NCBI GenBank assembly: GCA_043803685.1
Contig: JAZDJU010000010.1
Location: forward strand, 1-63,370
Length of the DNA stretch: 63,370 bases
Direction: 5' to 3'
Source: Candidatus Omnitrophota bacterium
GTDB taxonomy: Bacteria; Omnitrophota; Omnitrophia; Omnitrophales; Aquincolibacteriaceae
Shown here: positions 1 to 27,795 of the stretch, in pieces
Layout of the letters: each line of letters starts with the position of its first letter
Position numbering within the stretch: the first letter of the stretch is position 1
Made by a program: the position numbers and the translations under genes
Notes under the pieces: model-generated
Database searches by the model: none
What the model was told of the DNA's origin: nothing
The model's input: only the letters and a program-made list of their open reading frames with translations

Positions 1-4
1 AGGC

Positions 5-480
5 TTGCATGCGGAAGTGGCGCGTCTCAAGGAACGGATCCTGGATGTGCTCGCCAAGAGCCCGGATGAAAAAGAGTATGTCGCCGCCACACGCAAGCTC
101 TCCCTGCTCAAGCGTCTATTCAGTCTTGAAATGACGCGTTCCGAGTACGAAGAGTTGCGGAATCTGCCTAGTTTATCCAAAGAGCTTGCGGTGGGACTAC
201 AGACTACAGACCAGAGACCAGAGACTAAAACGAAAGGCCTGCAGTCTTCAGTCTCCAGTCTTCAGTCTATTTTCGCGGATGCAGTCGAGTTTTACGAGAC
301 TGCCATCGTCCGCGAAAACAAGATGTTCGCCAACGCTCTGAAGAAAATGGACGAGCGGAAAGAAAAGAACGCCGTGATCGTGACCGGCGGTTTCCACGCC
401 GAAGGTCTCAAGAAACTTGCCGCTTCGCAGGGGTGTGCCTACATGCAGGTCACGCCGCGGATCAACGAGATCTCGAAACG
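5..480 (+). other. Domain of giant ORF: C-terminal part of a TraB/GumN/Tiki (EreA/ChaN-like) fold
   Basis: RENKM (311-325) followed by AVIVTGGFHAEGL (GGFH at 386-397) resembles the RNxxM...hhhGxxH-xGL signature. The rest of the domain lies outside the window. Confidence 0.5.
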
Positions 481-3400
481 CGATCATGAGATCTATCTTC
501 GCTCCATTTTTGGTGCTCGCGATTTTGAATCGTCCCAGATGGGCCAGCCGTTGATCGAAGACGCCTCCATGCGTCAGATCCTTGGTGCGAAGTTGGGTAG
601 TTGGCTTGCTTCCATCCGGGAACTTGTGAAGGGTCTTATTAATTCCGCTCCCGTCCTGGATCGGGCGTCACTTTCATCCGCTCTTTCGAATTCTTCCTTA
701 TTTGGCAACGTAGCCGCAGTTCGCTCGGAAGTTCGCGCCTCGCAGACATTCCTTTACGAGGCTCATGGTGTCCGGATCCATGATCCGGAATTATCCCAAG
801 CGGCCGGCCAGAATCAAATGGCGGAACTTGGTGAAATGCTTGAGGGTGTTGACAATCATAAGATCGCTAGCAATGTGGCCATGCAGCATTTTGCGGAAAT
901 AGCGTCAACATATCCCCGTTCTGTTCGGCAAGCTTTGTCGTTGGAGATCAGTTCCTCTATGCAGTCGCTGGAAGAGGACCCCAGCGGCAACAACGAAACT
1001 GAATTGAATGTTCTGCGCGCAAAGCGAAGGCTGCTGTCGGAGCCCGAATCTTTCGCGACTTCGGCGATCGCCAATCGCTCGGAAGTGCGTAAACTTGGGG
1101 AAGCGGAATTCTATTACAACGCCCATGGGAGCCGGATCCATGATCCAAAGCTAACCCAAAAAGCTGGCGAACAGCAAATGGCGGCGCTTAAAGAGATCCT
1201 CGAGGATGTTGACGGGAACACGATCCAAAGCTCTGAGGCCATGATCGATGTCGCAAAGAGGGTGGCGGAATACAGCCCTTCAGTTCGGAAAGCTTTGGCA
1301 GCGGAAGTCCTCGCTTCCATGGATGTGCTGGAAAGCGGCGCACTGCGTTCTGACAAGACTCAGAGGGAAGTTTTGGTCATGCAGCATCAGCTGCTGACCG
1401 CGGCCGAATCTTTCTTCATCACGGAAACCAGGAAGGCCGCCAGCCGCTCGGAAGTGCGTCAGCTAAAGGGATCAGAATTCTATTACAACGCTCATGGGAT
1501 CGAGATCCATGATCCAAAGCTAACCCAAAAAGCTGGCGAACAGCAAATGGCGGAGCTTAAAAAAATTCTCGAAGACGTTGACGGGAATACGATCCGAAGC
1601 CGTCAGGCCATGATCGATGTCGCGAAGAGGGTGGCGGAATACAGTCTTTCTGCTCGGAAAGCATTGTCAGCGAAGGTTCTCGCTTCTAGAAGGGAACTGG
1701 GAAGCGGCGCGTCTCCTTCTGACAAGACTCAGATAGACGTTTTGGCCGAACAGTATCTTATTCTGATTAGACCCGATTCTTTCTTTATGCAGGAAACCAA
1801 GACGGTTGCCCACCGTCCGGCAGCGAGTGTGCAGGCTATTAAAAAAGCTTTTGGCGCTTATAAGCCTTTTAGCGTGGAGGCCTTTGCTTCCCATTTTAAG
1901 GTCACGGCGGAGGATGCCCGGAAACAACTGGAGAAGATGTGGCGTGCCAGCGACAACATGGACAGGATCAAGAAAAACGGCGCGTATCTTTATTTGTATA
2001 GTCCGATCAGTGTCGCGGTCCAGATTGGGCCGGACGTGAGGCCCGAGGATGTGGCGGATGCTGCGCGAGTGGTGATCAACCATTCTGAAACCAAGGAATT
2101 TTTGGGTGTCACAGCCGAGAGCGCGAGGAAACAGTTGGATGAATTCCTTGCCGCCGGATTCAAAGTGGTTTTGGCGTTCGGCGATTTTCCTGTCACTTTG
2201 ACCAAGGATGGAAAAACAACGGATTTCGAAGCCATGGGGCTAAGGAAGTTTCCGACGGACCTTAAGGCGATTACAGACAAGTTCATGACCCAAACCCTGA
2301 AGTCGAAGGACAGATCGTACGAAACCCTGCGAAAGTTATATCAGGAAGCTGAGTTTATTAGGGAGGCTTCTATTGACCAGCTCATAGGGCAGTTCGGGGA
2401 ATATCTGAAATTGTTTGATTTTAATGAAGAAGAGTTTAGGAATGCTTCGGATCTCACTGCCAGCTTGAAGAAGGAGCATGATCTGAAGGCGAAGATTATT
2501 TCAGAGATAAGCACGAAAACAGAAATCGAGTATGAAATTGGAATTTTGTTTTCCGGGTTGAAGCCCGAAGACGTCAGGGATCTCATTAAGAAGGCGTATG
2601 AGCCGATCGAGGGGATCAAGACGGTTGCTATTTCTGAGAAACTGGCGGAATTCCGCCGGGCTTATACCGTTCAGGCGATCGCTAAGGCTGCGGGAATGAG
2701 CGAAGATCAGGTTGCGGTCCTTTACGGCGGGGGCGGGAATGTGAAGAATTTTGCCGGATTAAAAAAGGCTGGATATGGAGGCGCTTTTATCGGGAGAGCC
2801 TCAGCGCTCGCGAAGGCTGAACCCGGCAAAGATTCAACGGCCAATATCTCTTTTGCCGCGCAGGAAACGGGTGAGAGACTCACTACGATCTATAACGCAA
2901 AATCAACGCGTGCGCCATCGCCCGCCGAATATATGAGCGCCTACGCGGAACGTGGCGTCAATACAGAAAGCGGAGTGAAGATCATTCATGCCGTGAGCCG
3001 TCTTGATTATCGCGCCTGGCAAAGAGAGCTTTCCGGAGAAAAGGTGAGTTCGTTGTTTGAGGATGTCAGTCAGGTTGCGTCCCGTCCACAAGTCACGATC
3101 GTTGCCGGTGCGACGGAAGCCACGCAAGGGATTGGCGCGTATACGGCGCATATTCCTGCTGAGTTTTTGCGTGAAGCCGGAGTGACCCAGGCACTTGTCG
3201 ATCGGACAAAGCCGTATGCAGTCAAGCAGACGCTCAATCTGATCAACGCCGGAATTACGCCGGTTGTGTATGAGAATTGGGAAGGTGTCGCAGAATTTTT
3301 TAAAGCTCTTGGAGAAGAAAATTTAGGCAGCATCGTGGAAATGAATACCGCCGGCATATCCGGCCTGCGGATCACGCCCATTAACGCCCTCCGGCAATTT

Positions 3401-6400
3401 CAAGGCCAGCATCAAGGCGGAGCTGTGTCCAACCGTTCGGAACTGAGAGCGGAAGTGCTGCCGGAAGCGAAATGGATCGAGATCGCTGCCGACGAAGTGG
3501 CGATCAAGCGCGCTTTCGGGACGAATGGGATCCGTTCGGACGATATCGAGATCGACGGCCAGCGGCGCATTGCTGCGGGGACCGCAGACGTGCTGGCGGC
3601 TCAGTGGCGCAAGGCCCATCCGGGGACAGAATTGCCGTGGGTGATGGTGGGATTTGATCCTCGTCCGCAGGGCGATAATGGCTTTACTCCGGGCGAGATG
3701 AGCGAATCCAAAGCCGTCGCGGAGGTTTTTGCGGCCTATGGTTTCAAGGTGTTGTTCGTTCCGAAGGCTGTCGCGGCGCCTTTCATGATCTCGGCGTCCG
3801 GCGAGAACGTGCACCCGAGGGATATTTTTGCCGCCGTGATGAGAACGGCGAGCCACAACGAAGTGGTGGACCCGAAATCCGGCAAGCTGGTGTCCGGGTT
3901 TAAGTTGTTCATGTGGAATGCCCCCGCGGCGGACAGCTTTACGGGACTTATTTCCGCGAAGATCAATGACGCGGAATTTTCTAAAGAAGTGCCGGTGCTG
4001 AACTTCGATCAGGCGGTCATTGAAGGAAAGATCGTGGTGTCAAAAGATGGCGATAACGACGATCCGGATACCGTGGAATTCCGGCGCATGCAGAAAGCCT
4101 TTGATCTCAAAACGATCGGAGACAAGATCCGGGCGAAGTTCCCGGCTTTCAAGATCGCGCTCAATACGATGAATGGAGGCATGTCCCAGTTCGGCCCCCG
4201 CGTACTCCGGGCGATGGGTATTATCAACAATAATAAAGGCTTCTTGGCGTTCAACACGAAGCTCATGAACGATCCGTCCATGAAATCCCAAATGTTGGGT
4301 TGGGTGGAATATCAAGATGCGAATACAGGTGAAATGAAGAGAGTTCGTTTCGCGCCGGATCCGACGCGGGCCTGGATGCGGGGCAAGGATTATCAGGATT
4401 TCGTGGCCCAGGATCCGATGAAGACCCTCGCTCTTTTGATCGACGGGGACGCGGATCGCTTGGTGGCGGAACTCGGCAAAGAGATCATCCCGAACGAGAT
4501 CGGCATGCTCGCCGCTTATTATCTGGCGAAGTACAAAGGTCAAAAGGGGCACATTGTGCGTACGGTGCCGACGACGGGCGGGTTGGACGCGTTGGCGCAG
4601 GCGCTCGGACTCGGGAAGGTGGATGTGACTCCCGTGGGCTCAAAATGGTTTGCGGGTCCAAATAAATATTATGACAGCAATCTAAACGATGTCCTTGTGG
4701 CTGTGGAAGAGAGCGGCCACATTGTTTTCAACAAGAAAGGACAGCTCTTCTTTGATCATTCCATTGGTCTCGCGACGCTCATGCTCGAAATGATGGCTGA
4801 GACGGGAAAGACATGGCAGGAATTGTCGGACGAGATGTGGGCGTTCATTGAAGAAAAGACCGGACAAAAGCGGATCGCGACAGTGCGTGACGGGATCAGC
4901 AAAGAAGATGGCGCCGAGAATTATTATGCTCTCGCGTTGCGTCTCGGTAACCCGTCAGAGGATACGTTTCGGCGTGAATTTGCGACGAAAATGGAAGCAA
5001 CTCTCGCCAAGGCGGGAATTCCGTGGAAGGTTACGAATATGGATATAGCCGACGCGGGCGGCGCCCAGCTTCAGTTCGAAGGCGGGCGGAAGGTGTTCCC
5101 GCGAAAATCAGGAACGGACGGCAGTGTTCGTCTCTACGGCGAAGTGCTCGATACAGAGCGCGATCTGGTGCCTGTCCTGATGAAGAGCATGCGCGAAGTG
5201 ATGGATTTTTTTGTTTCCGCGCAGCGTTCGGAGATGAGAAAAAAGACGTATTTGGCCTCAGCGGCCCTTGGGATTCCAGAGATCGGTAAAAACCTTGCCT
5301 ATTCCGCGGGAGCGGCACTCAGAGCGGTGTTTTGGCCAAATATTATCGATATGAGAAAACAGGGAAAGAACGCGATGGTTCGTAACGACATCCCTTCAGC
5401 CAAAGGCGGAGCTGTGTCCAGCAAACGCTCCGAGGTGCGTGAAGGGGTGCTGCCGCGCGTTGATACGCCGAAGACCCCAGAATGGAAACAATTACGCGCA
5501 TTTGCCAAAGAAATGAAAAAGAAGGCGAATGCTCTCCGGGAACTTTTCCGGAATGATCCTGAGCGGGTGTCAAAGCTCACGATGAATTTGCGTGAGGATG
5601 TTGCATTCGATTTCTCCAAGCAGCGCATTACCGGACCGATTCTGGATACTCTTGTAGCGCTCGCCGAACGGACGGGTGTTTCCGAAAGCATTGAGAAAAT
5701 GTTCACGGGCGCCAGGATCAACGAGACGGAGAACCGCGCGGTGCTTCACGTGGCCCTTCGTAACGTAAAGCGCGATCCGGAAAGCGGCAAGCTCGTCGCA
5801 GCCAATGGACCGATTTTTGCGGACGGAAAAGATGTGATGCCTGGCGTGATCCAGGTGCTGGAACAGATGGAAGCCTTCGTTCAATCGATCCATTCCGGTA
5901 CGCGAGTGGGCTATACCAAAAAAAAGATCAAGAATATTGTCAATATGGGGATCGGAGGTTCGGATCTTGGCGGCAAAATGGCGACTCGTGCGCTCATTCC
6001 TTACCAGTTCAAGAGGAAAGATGGTGTGAACGTTTACTATGTTTCCAACGTGGACGGAACGGACTTTGCCGAAGTGGTCAAGAACCTGGATCCCGAAGAA
6101 ACGATGTTTGTGATCGCTTCCAAGACTTTCACAACAGCCGAAACGATGCAGAACGCGCGATCCGCCAAGGATTGGATCCTCCGGCACTATGGAGTTGATA
6201 CTTCGGATCAGAAAAAAGCAGACGCGGTGGTGAATGCGCACTTTATCGCTTTATCAACCGCTGCAAAACTGGTGCAGGAATTCGGGATCACTCCGGATGA
6301 AGAGCATATGTTCCCGTTCTGGGACTGGGTTGGCGGCCGTTATTCGGTGTGGTCCGCGATCGGATTGCCGCTTGCGACCTACATCGGATTCGATAATTTC

Positions 6401-9400
6401 CTGAAATTTCTCGAGGGCGCGCGATATGTCGACGAGCATTTCAGGACGAAGCCTCTTCGCGAGAACATTCCGGTGATTAAGGCATTGCTCAACATCTGGA
6501 ACGGAAATTTCCTCGGGGCGAGGTCTTTTGCTGTATTGCCCTACGATCAATATTTGAGCCTTTTCCCGGAATTCGCCCAGCAGTTCTTTATGGAGAGCAA
6601 CGGGAAGATCGCAAGCCGGCTCGGTCGATTCGTGCGCTATATCACGGGGCTTATCCTGTGGGGAGCCGCCGGGACGAACGGTCAGCATTCCTTCTACCAA
6701 CTCCTCCATCAGGGAACCCATCTGATACCGGCGGATTTCATCGGTGTCCTCAAGACCCATAATCCTTTGCCGGGGCATCACGAGGAGCTTTTCTCCAATG
6801 TGCCCGCCCAAACGGAAGCTCTTGCTTTTGGCGCTACCAAAGAAGAGGTCAAGGCGTTGCTTGAAAAGGACTTGAAGTACAAAGGACAAGACATTGATTG
6901 GCATGCCGCACAGCAGACCTTCCCTGGGAACAAGCCAACGACTACGATCGCGTTGGATGAAGTCAATCCCGAAACGTTGGGTATGCTGGTGGCCCTTTAT
7001 GAGCATCAGATCTTTGTCGAGAGTGTGGTCCTGAACATCTTTGCGTTCGATCAGTGGGGAGTGCAGCTCGGGAAAAAGGTTGCGCTTAAAGTGCGTGCTT
7101 TCTTGACTGGGGAAAGACCTCCGGAAGAAATCGCATCCGCAGGTATTTCCGCTTCGGGCGAGTGGCTGATCCGCAGATGGCTTACGCGTGGCGGTGGTTC
7201 TCAGGCGGGGGTTGAGTCACAAGGCGGAGCTGTGTCCGAGCAATTCGAGACGCGTCAGCAGGAAAGCCGGGAAATAACAAAAATGCGGCTGGCTTCGATC
7301 CTTAACGGCGTGACCGGAGAAAAGGCGGGCGATAATTTTTTCATGGGACTTGTTGAGGGTTGGGTGAAGGAGTTTCCTGGAGATCTTCGGAGCGAGGTTG
7401 CGGCGGAGATCTCGGCTGCCATGGGAATGCTGGACAAAAGACCTTTCGATGAAACTAGGCTGAAAGTTCTCGAGAAGCAAAGTGAGTTGCTTTCGAGCAA
7501 ACTTCCCGTTGCAGTAAAACAAGCTGACGCGAACCCATCACAAGTTGAGGAGCTTCAAGCATTCCTGAACGAACGGGTTACTCCGTCCACGATCGGGGTT
7601 TCGATGCTGATGAAGGCTGTTGAGAAAGATATGGAAAAATTCGCCCTGCCTTCTCGGGCAGTTCTCCTGGTGGAAGTCAAGGCTGCTATAGAGGAGCAGG
7701 AGCGCCTGCGTGTTGTCGGGACCCAACGGAGTATCATGGCTAAGCAGATTGAATTTCTCTCGCAGGGATCCGCGGATGTCGCCACCCGCTCGGAGGTGAG
7801 GAAGATCGTTGTAGCTGCGTCTGTCGTGGGAGCTCCGGAGATCGGAGCAAACCTCGTCAAGACCATTGTCCGGGAAGGCGCCGTTGTGTCTGGAGCGTGG
7901 AAGGGGAACGAACAGTTTCCTTCCGATGACGTGCAAGTAGTTTCCGGCGAGGGAAAACGTGACCAGAAGTCTAAGGGAAGCAAGCGCTCCGAGGTTCGGT
8001 TTGATGCGGGAAGGGAACCTTCGCCGTACGGTCCGGATGCTTCTCAGGAAGGGTTGAGGCCTCTTTATGAACGGATCGCTTGGGCGCGTGAGCATGCTCC
8101 GAGCTATACCAGGATCAAGAGGATCTACGCGTTTTCGGATCAAAAGCACGGTATGGATCCCAAGGACGCCATTTCTTTCGGCGTTGTGCTGGAAGGTAAT
8201 ACTTCCGCTGACAGCGATGATGTTCTAGTGATCAATCAGAACGCGTCCGTTATGGGCGGTATTTCTGCCGGAGTGCTTGAGCCGGGGACGCATGGTAGCG
8301 TTGCGGAAGCCATTGAGTTCTTCAACAAGAACGTCGCAGACAGCTTGGTGGGTTTGAATGTCTCCCGGCCGGACGAGATCACTGCGAAGATCCTTGAGAT
8401 CGACGAGACCTTACGCAATTTGGCGCGGAGGAGCGATTTGTCGAGCACGAAGACGAAGCAGCGCTTCTCCTATATCGGAGCGGAGATCTCTATCGGTGTG
8501 TCCATGGCCGCCACGTTTGCTCTCGCAGAGGCGTTGGGTGTGCCGACCGAGGTCGTTCTTAACTATCGCTACAATGAATACACGCTCTCGACGGGTTTAG
8601 CGAAAGCGGTTCGCCCGATGAGCATTCCCGTGAATTACAGTGTGGTTTGGGAAGGCGGCAAGCACGGCGTGGCCAAGTATTTAAGCGAACTGATCAGCGA
8701 GGGGGTCATCCAGGACGGTAGCCGTTTCCCGGAAAGATTCAAGGATCAGGCGCTGATCGCCAAGAAGGACAAGAGCATTCTCCTGGCGGCGGTTCCTCCT
8801 CAAGAGCTCCAGATCATGGTCCTTGCTCCTGAATGGGAACAGGCTCGTCTGATCGGGATCAAGTTGACCAAGCTTTATCAGGCAAAACTGAAAGAGCATG
8901 GGATCAAGACCAAGTATGGCGCGGAATCCGGCTTCACAACGGAGCAATTGCGCGACAAGGCTGGAAACCTGATCGATCTGGATCTGGTGTTGGATATTTT
9001 GGGTGAGGCCGTGGACGCTTTGCCGGCTAATGAGGCAAAGTATGTGCGCTATGCGTTGGATATTGCTGCTTCCGAGATGTATATCCCGGAGATCGACATG
9101 TATTACGTCGGTCCCAGCGCGGCCAAGAATGCCGATGGTTTGGTGACGAACGAAGAGTTCACCCAGTACAAGTTGGCATTGTTCCAAAAGTACGGTCGCT
9201 TTATCTCTGTCGAAGATTGGGCCACCGAAGATGAAATAGATCATTGGGAAGGTGCAAAGGCCATCATGGGTTCCATGATCCAGATGGGGGATGATAACAC
9301 TGTCTCACGGGCTGACATGATCAAGAAATTTTCTGCGGTCATGAATGCCCATCTCCAGAAGCCGAATCAGTCGGCTGAAGAGCATGCAGGGATCGAAGCG

Positions 9401-19922: not shown

Positions 19923-21551
<1,629 letters not shown>

Positions 21552-21554
21552 GGG

Positions 21555-21848
21555 TTACTCCTTCTCGTAAACGGCGAGGATTTCGCTCTCTTTGACGATC
21601 TTGTGCTTGACGCCGTCGATCAAGATATCGTCGCCGGAGTATTTGCCGAAAAGAACGCGATCACCTTTTTTAACTTCAATGGCCTGGAGCTTTCCCGATT
21701 CGAGCATTTTCCCGGTCCCGATCGCGATGACCTTACCCTCGGTCTTTTCTTCTTTCGCGGTGTCCGGAAGGATAATGCCCCCCTTGGTTTTCGATTCCGC
21801 TTCAAGAACTTCTACGAGCACTCTGTCTGCTAACGGTCTGACTTTCAT
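21555..21848 (-). CDS. groS: Co-chaperonin GroES
   Basis: [27 protein letters not shown]. Confidence 0.98.
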
Positions 21849-21875
21849 GTTTGTGTCTCCTTTTGTTTTTTATTT

Positions 21876-21937
21876 GTCATTCCCGCAAAAGCGGGAATCC
21901 AGTTTCTGGATCCCCGATTAAAACATTCGGGGATGAC
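21876..21937. repeat. REP-like element with ATTCCC-N8-GGGAAT (dRS3-like) core
   Basis: gtcattcccgcaaaagcgggaatccag...tggatccccg...cggggatgac. Second copy at 45272-45352. Confidence 0.8.
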
Positions 21938-21956
21938 CTGCCTTGCGGCAGATCGG

Positions 21957-23711
<1,755 letters not shown>

Positions 23712-25245: not shown

Positions 25246-27795
25246 TTATTCCGGGAACCTGGAGCGGTCGAGCTCGAAGATTCTGACGCAAGTCCCGCCG
25301 GATAGGGATCCTTCGCTAATAAACGGCTTAAAAAAAGAGAGGCCTTCCGCTTGTAGGTAATACAACCGGAAGAGCATCGACCGGATAAGCTTCGCGTCTG
25401 CCATGACCGCATAAAGCGATTTCCCGTCCTGGAAAAGAAGGACCGAAAGATCCGTCAAAGGGTCGGCATAGATCTTTTCGACCAACTGTCCCTGATCGAG
25501 ATAGAAGAGACTCACGGGCCGGGTGATCCGTTTTTTGGATGGCTCTGCGATCAGCGTATCCTTGATCGCCCAGTTCACCTTCACACAAGGATCGGCGCCG
25601 AATGTAAGTTCGTCTCCTTCTTGACTCACCAGCGGCAAGGCGGGGCGATAATCCAGGAATTTCCCCGTGATGTCTAAAAAAACCTGGAGATAACTCGGAG
25701 GCGTCTTGTTTCCCAACCGGCCCCAAACAGCTTCCAGGCCCGTCTTCTGCCGCGTTCGCCATGCTTCTGCTTTCCTGAAATCCCACCGGGCGAACCGGGT
25801 CAGAGCAACATTTTTTTCGATCAAATCGCTGTCGAGAGAGACGTACATGGGAGGCAGCGCTTCCTTGCCATGGGTCCTGTCGAGAAACGCATTTTTCTGC
25901 TGCGCGGTCATGGACGAAGGCAGCGCTGAAAACGCTTCTTTTCTCCCAAGTCTCACGATCTTCAGGATGAGCTCGACCGCATCCGCGGTTTTCATGCCGG
26001 ATCTTTCCAAAAATTCAGCCGCGTTGTCCCTGCGGGTGTCCAGCATGCGAAGGATCCCGGCGGATAAATCCTCATCGTCGGTAAAGAACGCTCGCGCGAG
26101 CCAATACATCACGTGAGTGTTCTGAGTGCCTCCGTCCACGGGAACCCGGCGACGGCCGATCGCGCTGATAAAATAGCCCGGCGACCATGAGCTGTTGACG
26201 ATCGCGTCTTCCGGCGTCCGGGTCCTCAACTGCTGGAACGCCCGGAACCAAACATCGTCCATGATGAGCCGGCTCTCGCGAGCGGAGTTATGCGCGGCTC
26301 CAAGGATCGGCGTAAAAAAGATCAGGGACATCAAAAGGATCGCTGCGGGTTTCCTGCATTTCGCGAGAAAATCCGGAGCCGGGCTATTCCATGGCCACGG
26401 ACCCAGGAGCCGCGACAGATTTTCCGCCGCAAAACCCACGAACACCGACAGCGGAAGCGCGAGTAGAACGGCGAATCTCACCGACTGAAGCGTCATCAAA
26501 AAAAGGGGCATGCCGACCAGAACAAAGAAAAGGATCCTGAAAAGGCCGTATGGCTCCTTGCTGAGAAGAACGCGCCTTGTCTCGAGCGCGATCCCAAGGA
26601 TCGCAAAACTGAAAGTGACATAATTGCCTGTCTTGTGGATCAACCCGTTCACCGAAGTGGGCATGATCTCGCCCAGGGTGGGCAAGATGCTCGGCCAGAG
26701 ATCGAATTTCAAAAACATGAAATCCTGAAACGCTCCCCACGCCATGCGGATCGAATCGACCATGCCGGCCGGCGTAATGAACAGAGCCAGGAACACCATT
26801 GTCCCTGATCCATACCCCCCAAGGAATCTGAAAGCAGTCCGGACCACCGGAGGAGGTTTCATCTTGCCAAGCAGGGTCATGATCCCAGCGCTCACCAGAA
26901 GGCCGCCGGAGGTCAGAACGAAAATAAAGAGCCACCCATGCCAGAAAAGAACATAAAGACCCGTCAAGCATGCCGCGCTCAGCGCATAAAGCAGTATGTT
27001 TTTCCCTTGTCTCATCGCCATAAGAACGAGGGAAAGGATCGCCAGAGGAAAAAGGTGATTGTAAGGATCCGTGTCGTACCAGCCTAAGGTGGTTCGCTGT
27101 ATAAAGATCGGCGAAAGCGCCAAGGTCGTCATGCCGAAGATCGAGGCGAGAAGACCCAAGCCGATGGCCCTGGAAAAGAGCCAAAAGACGAACGGGATCA
27201 AAAAGACCAGAAAAAGCGATCCGTACGCAACCGCTTCGACCACCGTAATGTCAGGGAAAAACCGGGAGAGGCATTTGTAATAGAAAGCGCCCACGTAGGG
27301 ATGAAGCAAGAAAGGCTCCCAAAATCCGACAGGCGCCATCCCGAGCGGGCTTAGGACCTTCCACGATCTTCTGGCCCCGCTCTGGCCGGTCTCCAGCACT
27401 TGTTCAGTCTGGTAGAGGTAATGGTAGGGGTCCGCTTCAGACAAGTATTTCAATCGCCAACTCCAGGGAACCCCCTTGGAGAGGCTTTGCGCCACGGTTT
27501 CGATCGCCGCGTTATATTGAACCGGATCTTTCCGGATCGCCTGCTCTGCCAGTTCCGCTAATTTCTTTTCTCTCTCACGCTCTGACGCTTCCGTGATTTC
27601 TCGTTTTGGGGTTTTTGATAACTGGTCTTTGATCCGGTTTTCAACGACTCTCTTGGCGATCTCGCGAGGTGATCCAAAATGAAGAAAGGGTCCGCCATGG
27701 ATCGCATAAGTCCGGAAATAGATGGCGAAAAAACTGACGACAAGGATTCCCATCAGCGCGGTGATCCCATAGACCCGCGTTCTTCTAGATCGCAT
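25246..27795 (-). CDS. STT3/PglB/AglB-family oligosaccharyltransferase-like protein
   Basis: EADPYHY, GWYDTD and TLGE motifs, many TM helices, and a periplasmic TPEDAIVNSSWSPGY..DGGTQ segment. Confidence 0.85.
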   Translation of the reverse strand: MRSRRTRVYGITALMGILVVSFFAIYFRTYAIHGGPFLHFGSPREIAKRVVENRIKDQLSKTPKREITEASEREREKKLAELAEQAIRKDPVQYNAAIETVAQSLSKGVPWSWRLKYLSEADPYHYLYQTEQVLETGQSGARRSWKVLSPLGMAPVGFWEPFLLHPYVGAFYYKCLSRFFPDITVVEAVAYGSLFLVFLIPFVFWLFSRAIGLGLLASIFGMTTLALSPIFIQRTTLGWYDTDPYNHLFPLAILSLVLMAMRQGKNILLYALSAACLTGLYVLFWHGWLFIFVLTSGGLLVSAGIMTLLGKMKPPPVVRTAFRFLGGYGSGTMVFLALFITPAGMVDSIRMAWGAFQDFMFLKFDLWPSILPTLGEIMPTSVNGLIHKTGNYVTFSFAILGIALETRRVLLSKEPYGLFRILFFVLVGMPLFLMTLQSVRFAVLLALPLSVFVGFAAENLSRLLGPWPWNSPAPDFLAKCRKPAAILLMSLIFFTPILGAAHNSARESRLIMDDVWFRAFQQLRTRTPEDAIVNSSWSPGYFISAIGRRRVPVDGGTQNTHVMYWLARAFFTDDEDLSAGILRMLDTRRDNAAEFLERSGMKTADAVELILKIVRLGRKEAFSALPSSMTAQQKNAFLDRTHGKEALPPMYVSLDSDLIEKNVALTRFARWDFRKAEAWRTRQKTGLEAVWGRLGNKTPPSYLQVFLDITGKFLDYRPALPLVSQEGDELTFGADPCVKVNWAIKDTLIAEPSKKRITRPVSLFYLDQGQLVEKIYADPLTDLSVLLFQDGKSLYAVMADAKLIRSMLFRLYYLQAEGLSFFKPFISEGSLSGGTCVRIFELDRSRFPE

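Follow-up and report, generated by a model that had tools for sequence, protein, structure and literature searches.

Giant proteins of Omnitrophota that carry sugar-metabolism domains are already in print together with the idea of their cleavage, while a separator between their domains was not found there. West-Roberts et al. 2023 (bioRxiv 10.1101/2023.11.21.568195) reported TPI, PGI, FBPase, and PGM domains in the giant "Archaeovorins" and proposed that they are cleaved by C39/S8 domains. In the available parts of that preprint, the cleavage points are stated to be unknown, and the lack of them is said to have blocked the analysis. Nielsen and Lui 2026 (bioRxiv 10.64898/2026.06.07.730766) described "multi-enzyme metabolic clusters" in Omnitrophota giants, and the available portion of their main text mentions no motif, cleavage, polyprotein, or linker. 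There is also no mention of cleavage in the accessible part of Seymour et al. 2023 (PMC10066038). As far as these partial texts go, the proteins of the first two papers share with the one described here the phylum Omnitrophota, long ORFs, a signal peptide, and TPI/PGI/FBPase/PGM domains; they differ in having at least 10,000 amino acids and in being described with no head, tail, or separator. The present locus also has many distinct sugar-metabolism domains in one ORF of an Omnitrophota genome. However, the Archaeovorin traits (at least 30,000 amino acids, many membrane helices, SecA DEAD, and C39/S8 domains) are absent from the protein analysed here, although SecA_DEAD occurs in another giant of the same genome. 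In the openly accessible texts searched, no description of the separator was found.

The principle of a cut polyprotein is known from viruses, and no described cellular system of the present build was found. In flavivirus polyproteins, a protease site, an internal signal, and a signalase site are arranged together. The Omnitrophota giants resemble viral polyproteins in having one ORF, a short recurring site, and internal signals directly after the site. In contrast to the viral proteins, the giants are a chromosomal multigene family with exchangeable metabolic and envelope cargo, and their site changes between lineages. MARTX toxins, according to the available part of their description (PMC6315884), are also large proteins with conserved ends, variable modules, and cuts in the linkers. 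The giants differ from these toxins by an N-terminal signal peptide, sugar-phosphate cargo, up to 28 sites, and searches that found neither RTX repeats nor a cysteine protease domain. In this study, a pentapeptide motif proved to be real and under strong selection; it separates the modules of a large protein family, and cleavage at it is putative.

Organization of the giant ORF

The window, which is the whole stretch of DNA analysed here (63,370 nucleotides; contig JAZDJU010000010.1 of assembly GCA_043803685.1), begins with a giant ORF at 2..11872. This ORF, like all features located below, is on the forward strand and encodes a head-cargo-tail protein of Omnitrophota in one stop-free frame of 3956 codons plus a stop. 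The ORF is 5′-open at the contig start and begins inside the conserved head domain; about 410 residues are absent when compared with the nearest paralogue (C59:32755-46947). Thus, the TTG at position 5 is not the true start, and the whole protein would have about 4,400 amino acids with a completed head. The other contigs of the genome (2.89 Mb in 133 contigs) did not yield the missing 5′ part. The remaining C-terminal part of the head (2..721) is 58% identical to the head of that paralogue and has the GGFH motif at 386-397, while the signal peptide and the HIQxAH and EG motifs fall beyond the contig start. As a side observation, the loops of the head (window positions 190-270 and the heads of paralogues) carry short in-frame insertions with recurring peptide pairs, and these insertions apparently derive from small palindromic DNA repeats.

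The first motif (RSEVR, 722..736) joins the head to repeat 1 (737..1075), which has about 115 amino acids and matches no family. Further RSEVR copies at 1076..1090 and 1445..1459 precede repeat 2 (1091..1444) and repeat 3 (1460..1810), respectively, and the latter ends in a motif-less joint at approximately 1814-1828. A relative has RSETR immediately ahead of the module that follows this joint. In the window, that module consists of a small unassigned domain and a TPI-like part (1838..3433); a 58-62% identical module of the relative G015 is bracketed by RSETR. The fourth motif (RSELR, 3434..3448) opens a phosphohexomutase (PGM/PMM) module (3449..5224) with TASHN, DGDADR, EESGH, and RKSGT motifs, identified by Pfam and PDB. 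The fifth (RSEMR, 5225..5239) and sixth (RSEVR, 5426..5440) motifs enclose a 62-aa spacer (5240..5425) that is blank in Pfam. The glucose-6-phosphate isomerase (PGI) module follows (5441..7200), whose active-site motifs align without loss to a solved enzyme, and which is here without the downstream motif that its homologues carry. Behind it are two degenerate copies of the repeat (7256..7786; 28% and 20% identical to repeat 1), the seventh motif (RSEVR, 7787..7801), a 61-aa spacer (7802..7984), and the eighth motif (RSEVR, 7985..7999). Judged by eye, the two spacers are similar, and both may have remained from a single module. A divergent enolase-like module (8000..9712) is 28% identical to the stand-alone enolase of the genome and is followed by RPAVR (9713..9727), a decayed motif that aligns with the RSEVR and RSEMR starting the next module in two homologues. 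That next module (9728..11170) is GlpX-like (FBPase class II) in its motif order, as judged by eye only, and was shuffled independently of the enolase. The ninth motif (RSEVR, 11171..11185) joins the cargo to the tail (11186..11869), which combines an alpha/beta core with a long helix that ends the protein in SA. A hairpin resembling an intrinsic terminator lies 3′ of the stop codon (11897..11938). The window protein has no hydrophobic segment and no membrane stop.

It is unlikely that the ORF is an assembly chimera. The frame is stop-free, the GC content is 0.49-0.57 per module, the order from TPI to enolase recurs in G015, and that from mutase to PGI recurs in G015 and G133. A read or contig across the whole gene was looked for and not found; the one sequencing run available covers it in short pieces only.

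The pentapeptide marks module boundaries

The initial annotation had listed nine RSE[VLM]R copies delimiting segments of 113, 118, 658, 592, 62, 782, 61, 1057, and 228 amino acids. All nine were recovered at the listed starts, with the listed codons and in one frame, and the segment lengths follow from their positions. It had also placed every copy outside the enzyme folds, and indeed none lies within any Pfam stretch of the window protein. On the other hand, three internal joints of this protein have no motif, and thus not every boundary is marked. In 5000 shuffled versions of the protein, the count of RSE[VLM]R was 0.011 on average and 1 at most, versus 9 observed; RSE.R is the top gapped 5-mer (9 occurrences versus 3 for the next one).

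Is the motif common in the genome? The whole genome has 150 copies of RSE[VLMIA]R in 18 ORFs of 548-10,126 amino acids, and 129 of these copies are in 14 head-bearing ORFs (65 kaa). Only one copy occurs in 1408 other ORFs of 250-999 amino acids (614 kaa), and the ORF concerned is itself a member of the family that is truncated at its 5′ end. The motif is absent from several other very long ORFs of the genome. In a test that used the best stretch per Pfam family only, no copy was found inside 38 Pfam stretches (6144 amino acids), versus 13.1 expected. The system, taken by the initial annotation as a feature of one sugar-enzyme protein, turned out to be genome-wide and to have other cargo too: across the giants of the genome, hexokinase, glycogen synthase, a histidine kinase, DnaJ, a SecA-like protein, and membrane proteins were found. 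Some motif pairs are just 3-12 residues apart. The 15 residues preceding the motif are less hydrophobic than the average (0.26 versus 0.33).

Homology between giants often begins and ends at the motif. Among 11 homology blocks, 7 start at a motif and 7 end at one, where about 1.2 would be expected in each case. The motif lies 3-17 residues ahead of PGI in all 12 giant-embedded homologues despite their differing upstream neighbours, and just after PGI in 10 of the 11 that have sequence there; the 13th PGI homologue is a stand-alone gene (in G011). Within the order, six mutase homologues are embedded in giants, of which four are bracketed by the motif on both sides, one on one side, and one, a partial match, on neither. 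The stand-alone mutase genes of G013 and G227 start and stop at about the motif positions. In a relative, one giant shares the TPI-like and enolase-like modules of the window and also has GAPDH and a histidine phosphatase, all between motifs. A giant of another lineage has a head, a 70%-identical mutase, and a tail with no repeated motif. These results showed that modules move between giants as motif-to-motif units and that the motif marks module boundaries. The initial annotation had read the ORF as a precursor cut at the motif. This reading is strongly, though indirectly, supported by the position of the motif at module boundaries across genomes, the ends of stand-alone homologues at the same place, and the export signals that follow it, while cleavage itself is a prediction.

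In the G227 genome (C78; L224:1-3076), a stand-alone mutase that is 68% identical to the window module lies directly after the end of another long frame, the C-terminal part of which resembles the tail of the family. This arrangement may be a case of a gene being captured or lost.

From the motif, the new N-termini of the giants can be predicted exactly, and the giants can be split for annotation and folding. Since three joints of the window protein lack it, some enzymes would stay fused. Among the matches to RSELR or RSEVR in print that were listed, three papers concern alginate lyases and one an unrelated subject; in alginate lyases, the sequence is a catalytic strand motif, and it was judged not related.

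Export signals, the head domain, and putative cutting

Sec, Tat, and lipoprotein signals are most effective when they stand at an N-terminus that is free in the cytoplasm. For 104 head-selected proteins, 595 motif contexts were scored by simple pattern rules: a hydrophobic stretch follows the motif in 60 cases and precedes it in 18 (23.5 at random), a Tat signal follows in 5 and precedes in 1 (0.9 at random), and a lipobox follows in 5 and precedes in none (0.9 at random). In a partly overlapping set of 493 contexts, a hydrophobic stretch was found 46 times after the motif and 13 times before it (16.5 at random). In this genome, 24 of 170 copies have such a stretch after them and 3 before them (6.9 at random), while the effect is weak in the other RSExR loci of that count (9 after, 2 before, and 5.0 at random among 182). 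Paralogous modules that are only about 30-35% identical keep the signal right after the motif. In one giant, two paralogous modules open with a Sec-like and a Tat-like signal, respectively, each directly after a motif. These export signals right after the motif are the main reason for which cutting before export is preferred here, although internal signals can be used without an upstream cut, as at the signalase sites of flaviviruses.

It is proposed that the gene in the window is one of about 18 chromosomal polyprotein genes, each of which would encode a signal peptide, a head of the TIKI/ChaN fold, exchangeable cargo, and a tail ending in SA or AA, with R-[S/A]-E-x-R separating the modules. 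One protease per cell would cut at or beside the motif, on the side of the cytoplasm and while the chain is being made or shortly afterwards. It may be one of the head paralogues, working in trans, or a protease of another kind. The cutting would free the soluble enzymes (mutase, PGI, TPI-like, enolase-like, and GlpX-like) to fold and oligomerise, and would expose the Sec, Tat, or lipoprotein signals that open other modules, so that each piece could be sorted by itself. A cut after the last Arg would fit best, because some modules start with Met or with a signal peptide directly after the motif. Cutting at the motif by some protease is considered probable. That one protease, set at the level of the genome, cuts the polyproteins in the cytoplasm of the cell itself is somewhat favoured over its negation. 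The N-terminal signal counts against the cytoplasmic location, since it would export the whole chain, which has no membrane stop, unless the cutting is fast. The decayed joints, the motif-free giants, and the segments of 3-12 residues count against cleavage as such. If the chains are cut, glycolytic enzymes that topology predictions for the whole chain put outside the cell would have to be predicted anew, and the protease would be site-specific, with variants of its specificity occurring in nature.

Among the motif-bearing giants, all 12 whose N-terminus is intact have a signal-peptide-like segment and a head of about 500 amino acids with HIQxAH, EG, and GGFH motifs. The head was found in 68 of the 81 phylum genomes searched and in 10,191 protein representatives, and its identity among the paralogues of this genome is 20-65%. 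A model of the head of the nearest paralogue (C59:32755-46947) has a pLDDT of 79.9. Its five best fold matches of 48,161 chains (VIA) are HopBA1, EreC, Bcr136, Bcr135, and ChaN, with Z of 8.2-9.7, rmsd of 4.2-5.7, and 167-186 aligned residues; Foldseek with the same model gave no match, and the Pfam ChaN family matched 3 of 13 heads weakly, below the cut-off. All 96 heads compared keep His, Glu, Arg, and His without exception. The head resembles the TIKI/Ere/ChaN group (HopBA1 5t09, EreC 6xcq, Bcr135/136, ChaN 2g5g; RRSP) in its fold and, as mapped by motif order and not by superposition, may share these four residues with it. It differs from the group by a large helical insertion, by scores below the Pfam ChaN cut-off, and, by the same mapping, in the position of the first Glu of Ere, which is Gln in 90 of 96 heads and variable in the others. 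According to the model, the head is a candidate TIKI/ChaN-fold domain and a candidate hydrolase.

The tail gave generic Rossmann-like fold matches (best Z of 8.0 with many ties), and no match was found in Pfam, PDB, or Atlas. SA or AA ends the protein in 16 of 16 complete family members, compared with 19 of 1410 other ORFs of the genome, and in 83 of the 104 head-selected proteins. I take the helix ending in SA or AA to resemble the recognition end for tail-specific or Clp proteases. The motif precedes the tail in 15 of 16 homologous loci placed by script, while 7 of 23 loci gave no placement. A cargo-free gene consisting of a head and a tail (739 amino acids, L011:2711-4918, which is G000 C114:46201-48417) lacks RSExR and is arranged head-to-head with a giant. 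Its product is a candidate trans-acting protease, and in the phylogeny of heads it has a long branch. No gene common to the surroundings of the giants and no shared protease or recombinase was found among the neighbours of the giants (10 window neighbours and 22 of 49 listed ORFs near other giants).

Does each giant cut itself? In this alternative, the N-terminal TIKI-fold head would act in cis. The head is present on all 12 giants mentioned above, its five best fold matches all belong to the TIKI/Ere/ChaN group with His, Glu, Arg, and His invariant, and RRSP of that group is a site-specific endopeptidase, as stated in the available part of its description (PMC6254334). However, the same fold group also holds esterases and non-enzymes, according to the accessible part of another report (PMC7979712), the Ere active-site residues were mapped by order rather than by superposition, heads lead motif-free giants too, and a head that follows a signal peptide would end up across the membrane from any cytoplasmic cargo.

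The distribution of motif types bears on the same alternative. RSExR or RAExR is found in families f1, f4, and f9, AxSLG in f3 and f8, GARLA in f22, and RxSTSG in f16, while several genomes of other lineages have no clear repeated motif. Among the 104 head-selected proteins, which have at least 1500 amino acids, 77 have at least three RSExR-type copies, 12 have AxSLG, 15 have fewer than three copies of any motif tested, which speaks against cleavage as a general rule, and none has both types. Likewise, no protein with two motif types was found among 92 head proteins. Genomes also have dialects, such as 22 of 22 copies with RAExR in G048 and 13 of 14 with RSEAR in G133 (one giant each), and the differences between genomes have p below 1e-20. 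On a FastTree phylogeny of 92 heads with long branches, in which the 62 rows labelled RSExR or AxSLG were counted and kin are not independent, at least 10 changes between the two types were found, and the types mix in well-supported clades. It was shown at the level of sequence that the motif type is set per genome and not by the head paralogue. Heads that are 20-65% alike share one motif within a genome, and heads of one clade have different motifs across genomes. The motif is thus not determined by the head paralogue, and the data agree better with one reader for each genome. Cutting of each giant by its own head is rather unlikely, although recombination between head and cargo could also uncouple the head from the motif. 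The N-terminal domain, whose presence or absence the initial annotation had proposed to test, is a candidate hydrolase by fold, and the head tree does not track the motif type.

Another alternative is that the motif is not cut at all. It may serve as a tag at which a chaperone or exporter docks or the chain pauses, or be the translated trace of a DNA site where modules are inserted in frame. The codons of the motif are shared: of 150 copies, 131 have CGY for the first Arg (control 109 of 241) and 148 have TCN for Ser (control 241 of 344), and the consensus CGC TCC GAR RYG CGG, which is weakly palindromic, recurs in other families. The folding energy of the motif DNA is slightly below that of synonymous recodings (mean z of -0.1 to -1.0). 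An RNA hairpin was considered and rejected due to this weak energy excess and the lack of base covariation in the palindrome. The strong genome dialects, the tolerance of decayed joints and motif-free giants, and the two Hsp20 and two GroEL genes near the gene would also suit an uncut motif. On the other side, of 105 matches to the DNA pattern, 101 lie in giants and in frame, and no variant with Asp for Glu or Pro for Ser was found, which argues that the peptide is under selection. One genome uses AGG for the first Arg in 12 of 48 copies, and Tat and lipoprotein signals would be hard to use in an uncut chain. The earlier statement that the motif is conserved as peptide and not as DNA therefore holds for the selection on the peptide, whereas the synonymous codon choice is also biased. 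New copies of the motif probably arise by the copying of existing ones when modules are captured or shuffled, which would account for the shared codons and genome dialects; the nucleotide sequence may also have a role of its own. An uncut motif is considered improbable.

It was also considered that the giant enters a host or prey cell in one piece and is cut there as MARTX toxins are, so that its enzymes would redirect host sugar metabolism and its internal signals would use the Sec and Tat systems of the host. The signal peptide, the head, and the C-terminal helix could be delivery signals, the cargo duplicates the stand-alone TPI and enolase and a PGI fusion while being divergent and patchy, and the phylum is described as host-dependent in the available part of PMC10066038. 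In contrast, paralogues of the window protein have up to 13 hydrophobic segments, which would be hard to thread uncut through Sec and a second channel, and neither RTX repeats nor a CPD was found in the window protein and the 17 other ORFs of the family. Delivery of the uncut giant is thus quite unlikely.

Separation of the chain on the ribosome, by a skip or restart at the motif with no protease, is very improbable. Its reader would be genome-wide, as the motif is, and 80 of the 150 copies in this genome have ATG or GTG as their fourth codon, but other genomes prefer GCG, ACG, or Leu there, and no conserved peptide or ribosome-binding site was found upstream of the motif. An internal start with a Shine-Dalgarno sequence was rejected, as codon 4 is often no start codon and there is no upstream site. 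Such a mechanism is not known to exist in bacteria.

Cutting of the giants at the motif by a genome-level protease may extend far beyond this genome. Much of the phylum may express hundreds of accessory proteins per genome from virus-style polyproteins, for which whole genes together with their export signals would be captured in frame between copies of one genome-wide pentapeptide, shuffled among 10-40 loci, and cut by a dedicated protease in the cytoplasm of the cell or of a host, with motif and protease drifting together (RSExR, RAExR, AxSLG, GARLA, RxSTSG). The balance tips slightly toward this wider proposal.

Cargo enzymes and neighbouring genes

The enzyme labels of the initial annotation were upheld by Pfam and PDB for PGI, phosphohexomutase, a divergent enolase, and a divergent TPI, while the GlpX label was made by eye only and the winged-helix (wHTH) label of the domain ahead of TPI found no Pfam support. 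The match to PGI has an E value of 3.5e-183, and both the PGI and the mutase modules keep their active-site motifs. The enolase-like module keeps most of the metal-binding and catalytic residues of enolases. For the GlpX-like module, no match was found by Pfam, by a PF03320 search of the genome, among PDB sequences, or in Atlas; its name follows the order of GlpX motifs.

The pieces of the TPI-like module match TPI in a permuted order, with the His and Glu regions first and the loop-3 region after them. Thus, by its sequence, the module looks circularly permuted. It may be a single-chain or monomeric variant of TPI. In window positions 2000-3433, the permuted TPI is followed by a seeming second, decayed copy of the His region. 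Within the order, the TPI module occurs in 2 of 96 genomes and the enolase segment in 4 of 96.

The genome also has a stand-alone TPI, a stand-alone enolase, and a transaldolase-PGI fusion of 957 amino acids (L199:620-3490), the last being the only other PGI match in the genome. Since these genes are present, the sugar-enzyme cargo of the giant is regarded as accessory. This cargo is divergent and patchy among relatives.

Two Hsp20 genes lie directly 3′ of the giant ORF, and two GroEL genes are found 8-12 kb away (window 12128-13463 and 19923-23690). Further downstream, the window has a gene for an STT3-like oligosaccharyltransferase of 849 amino acids (25246-27795).
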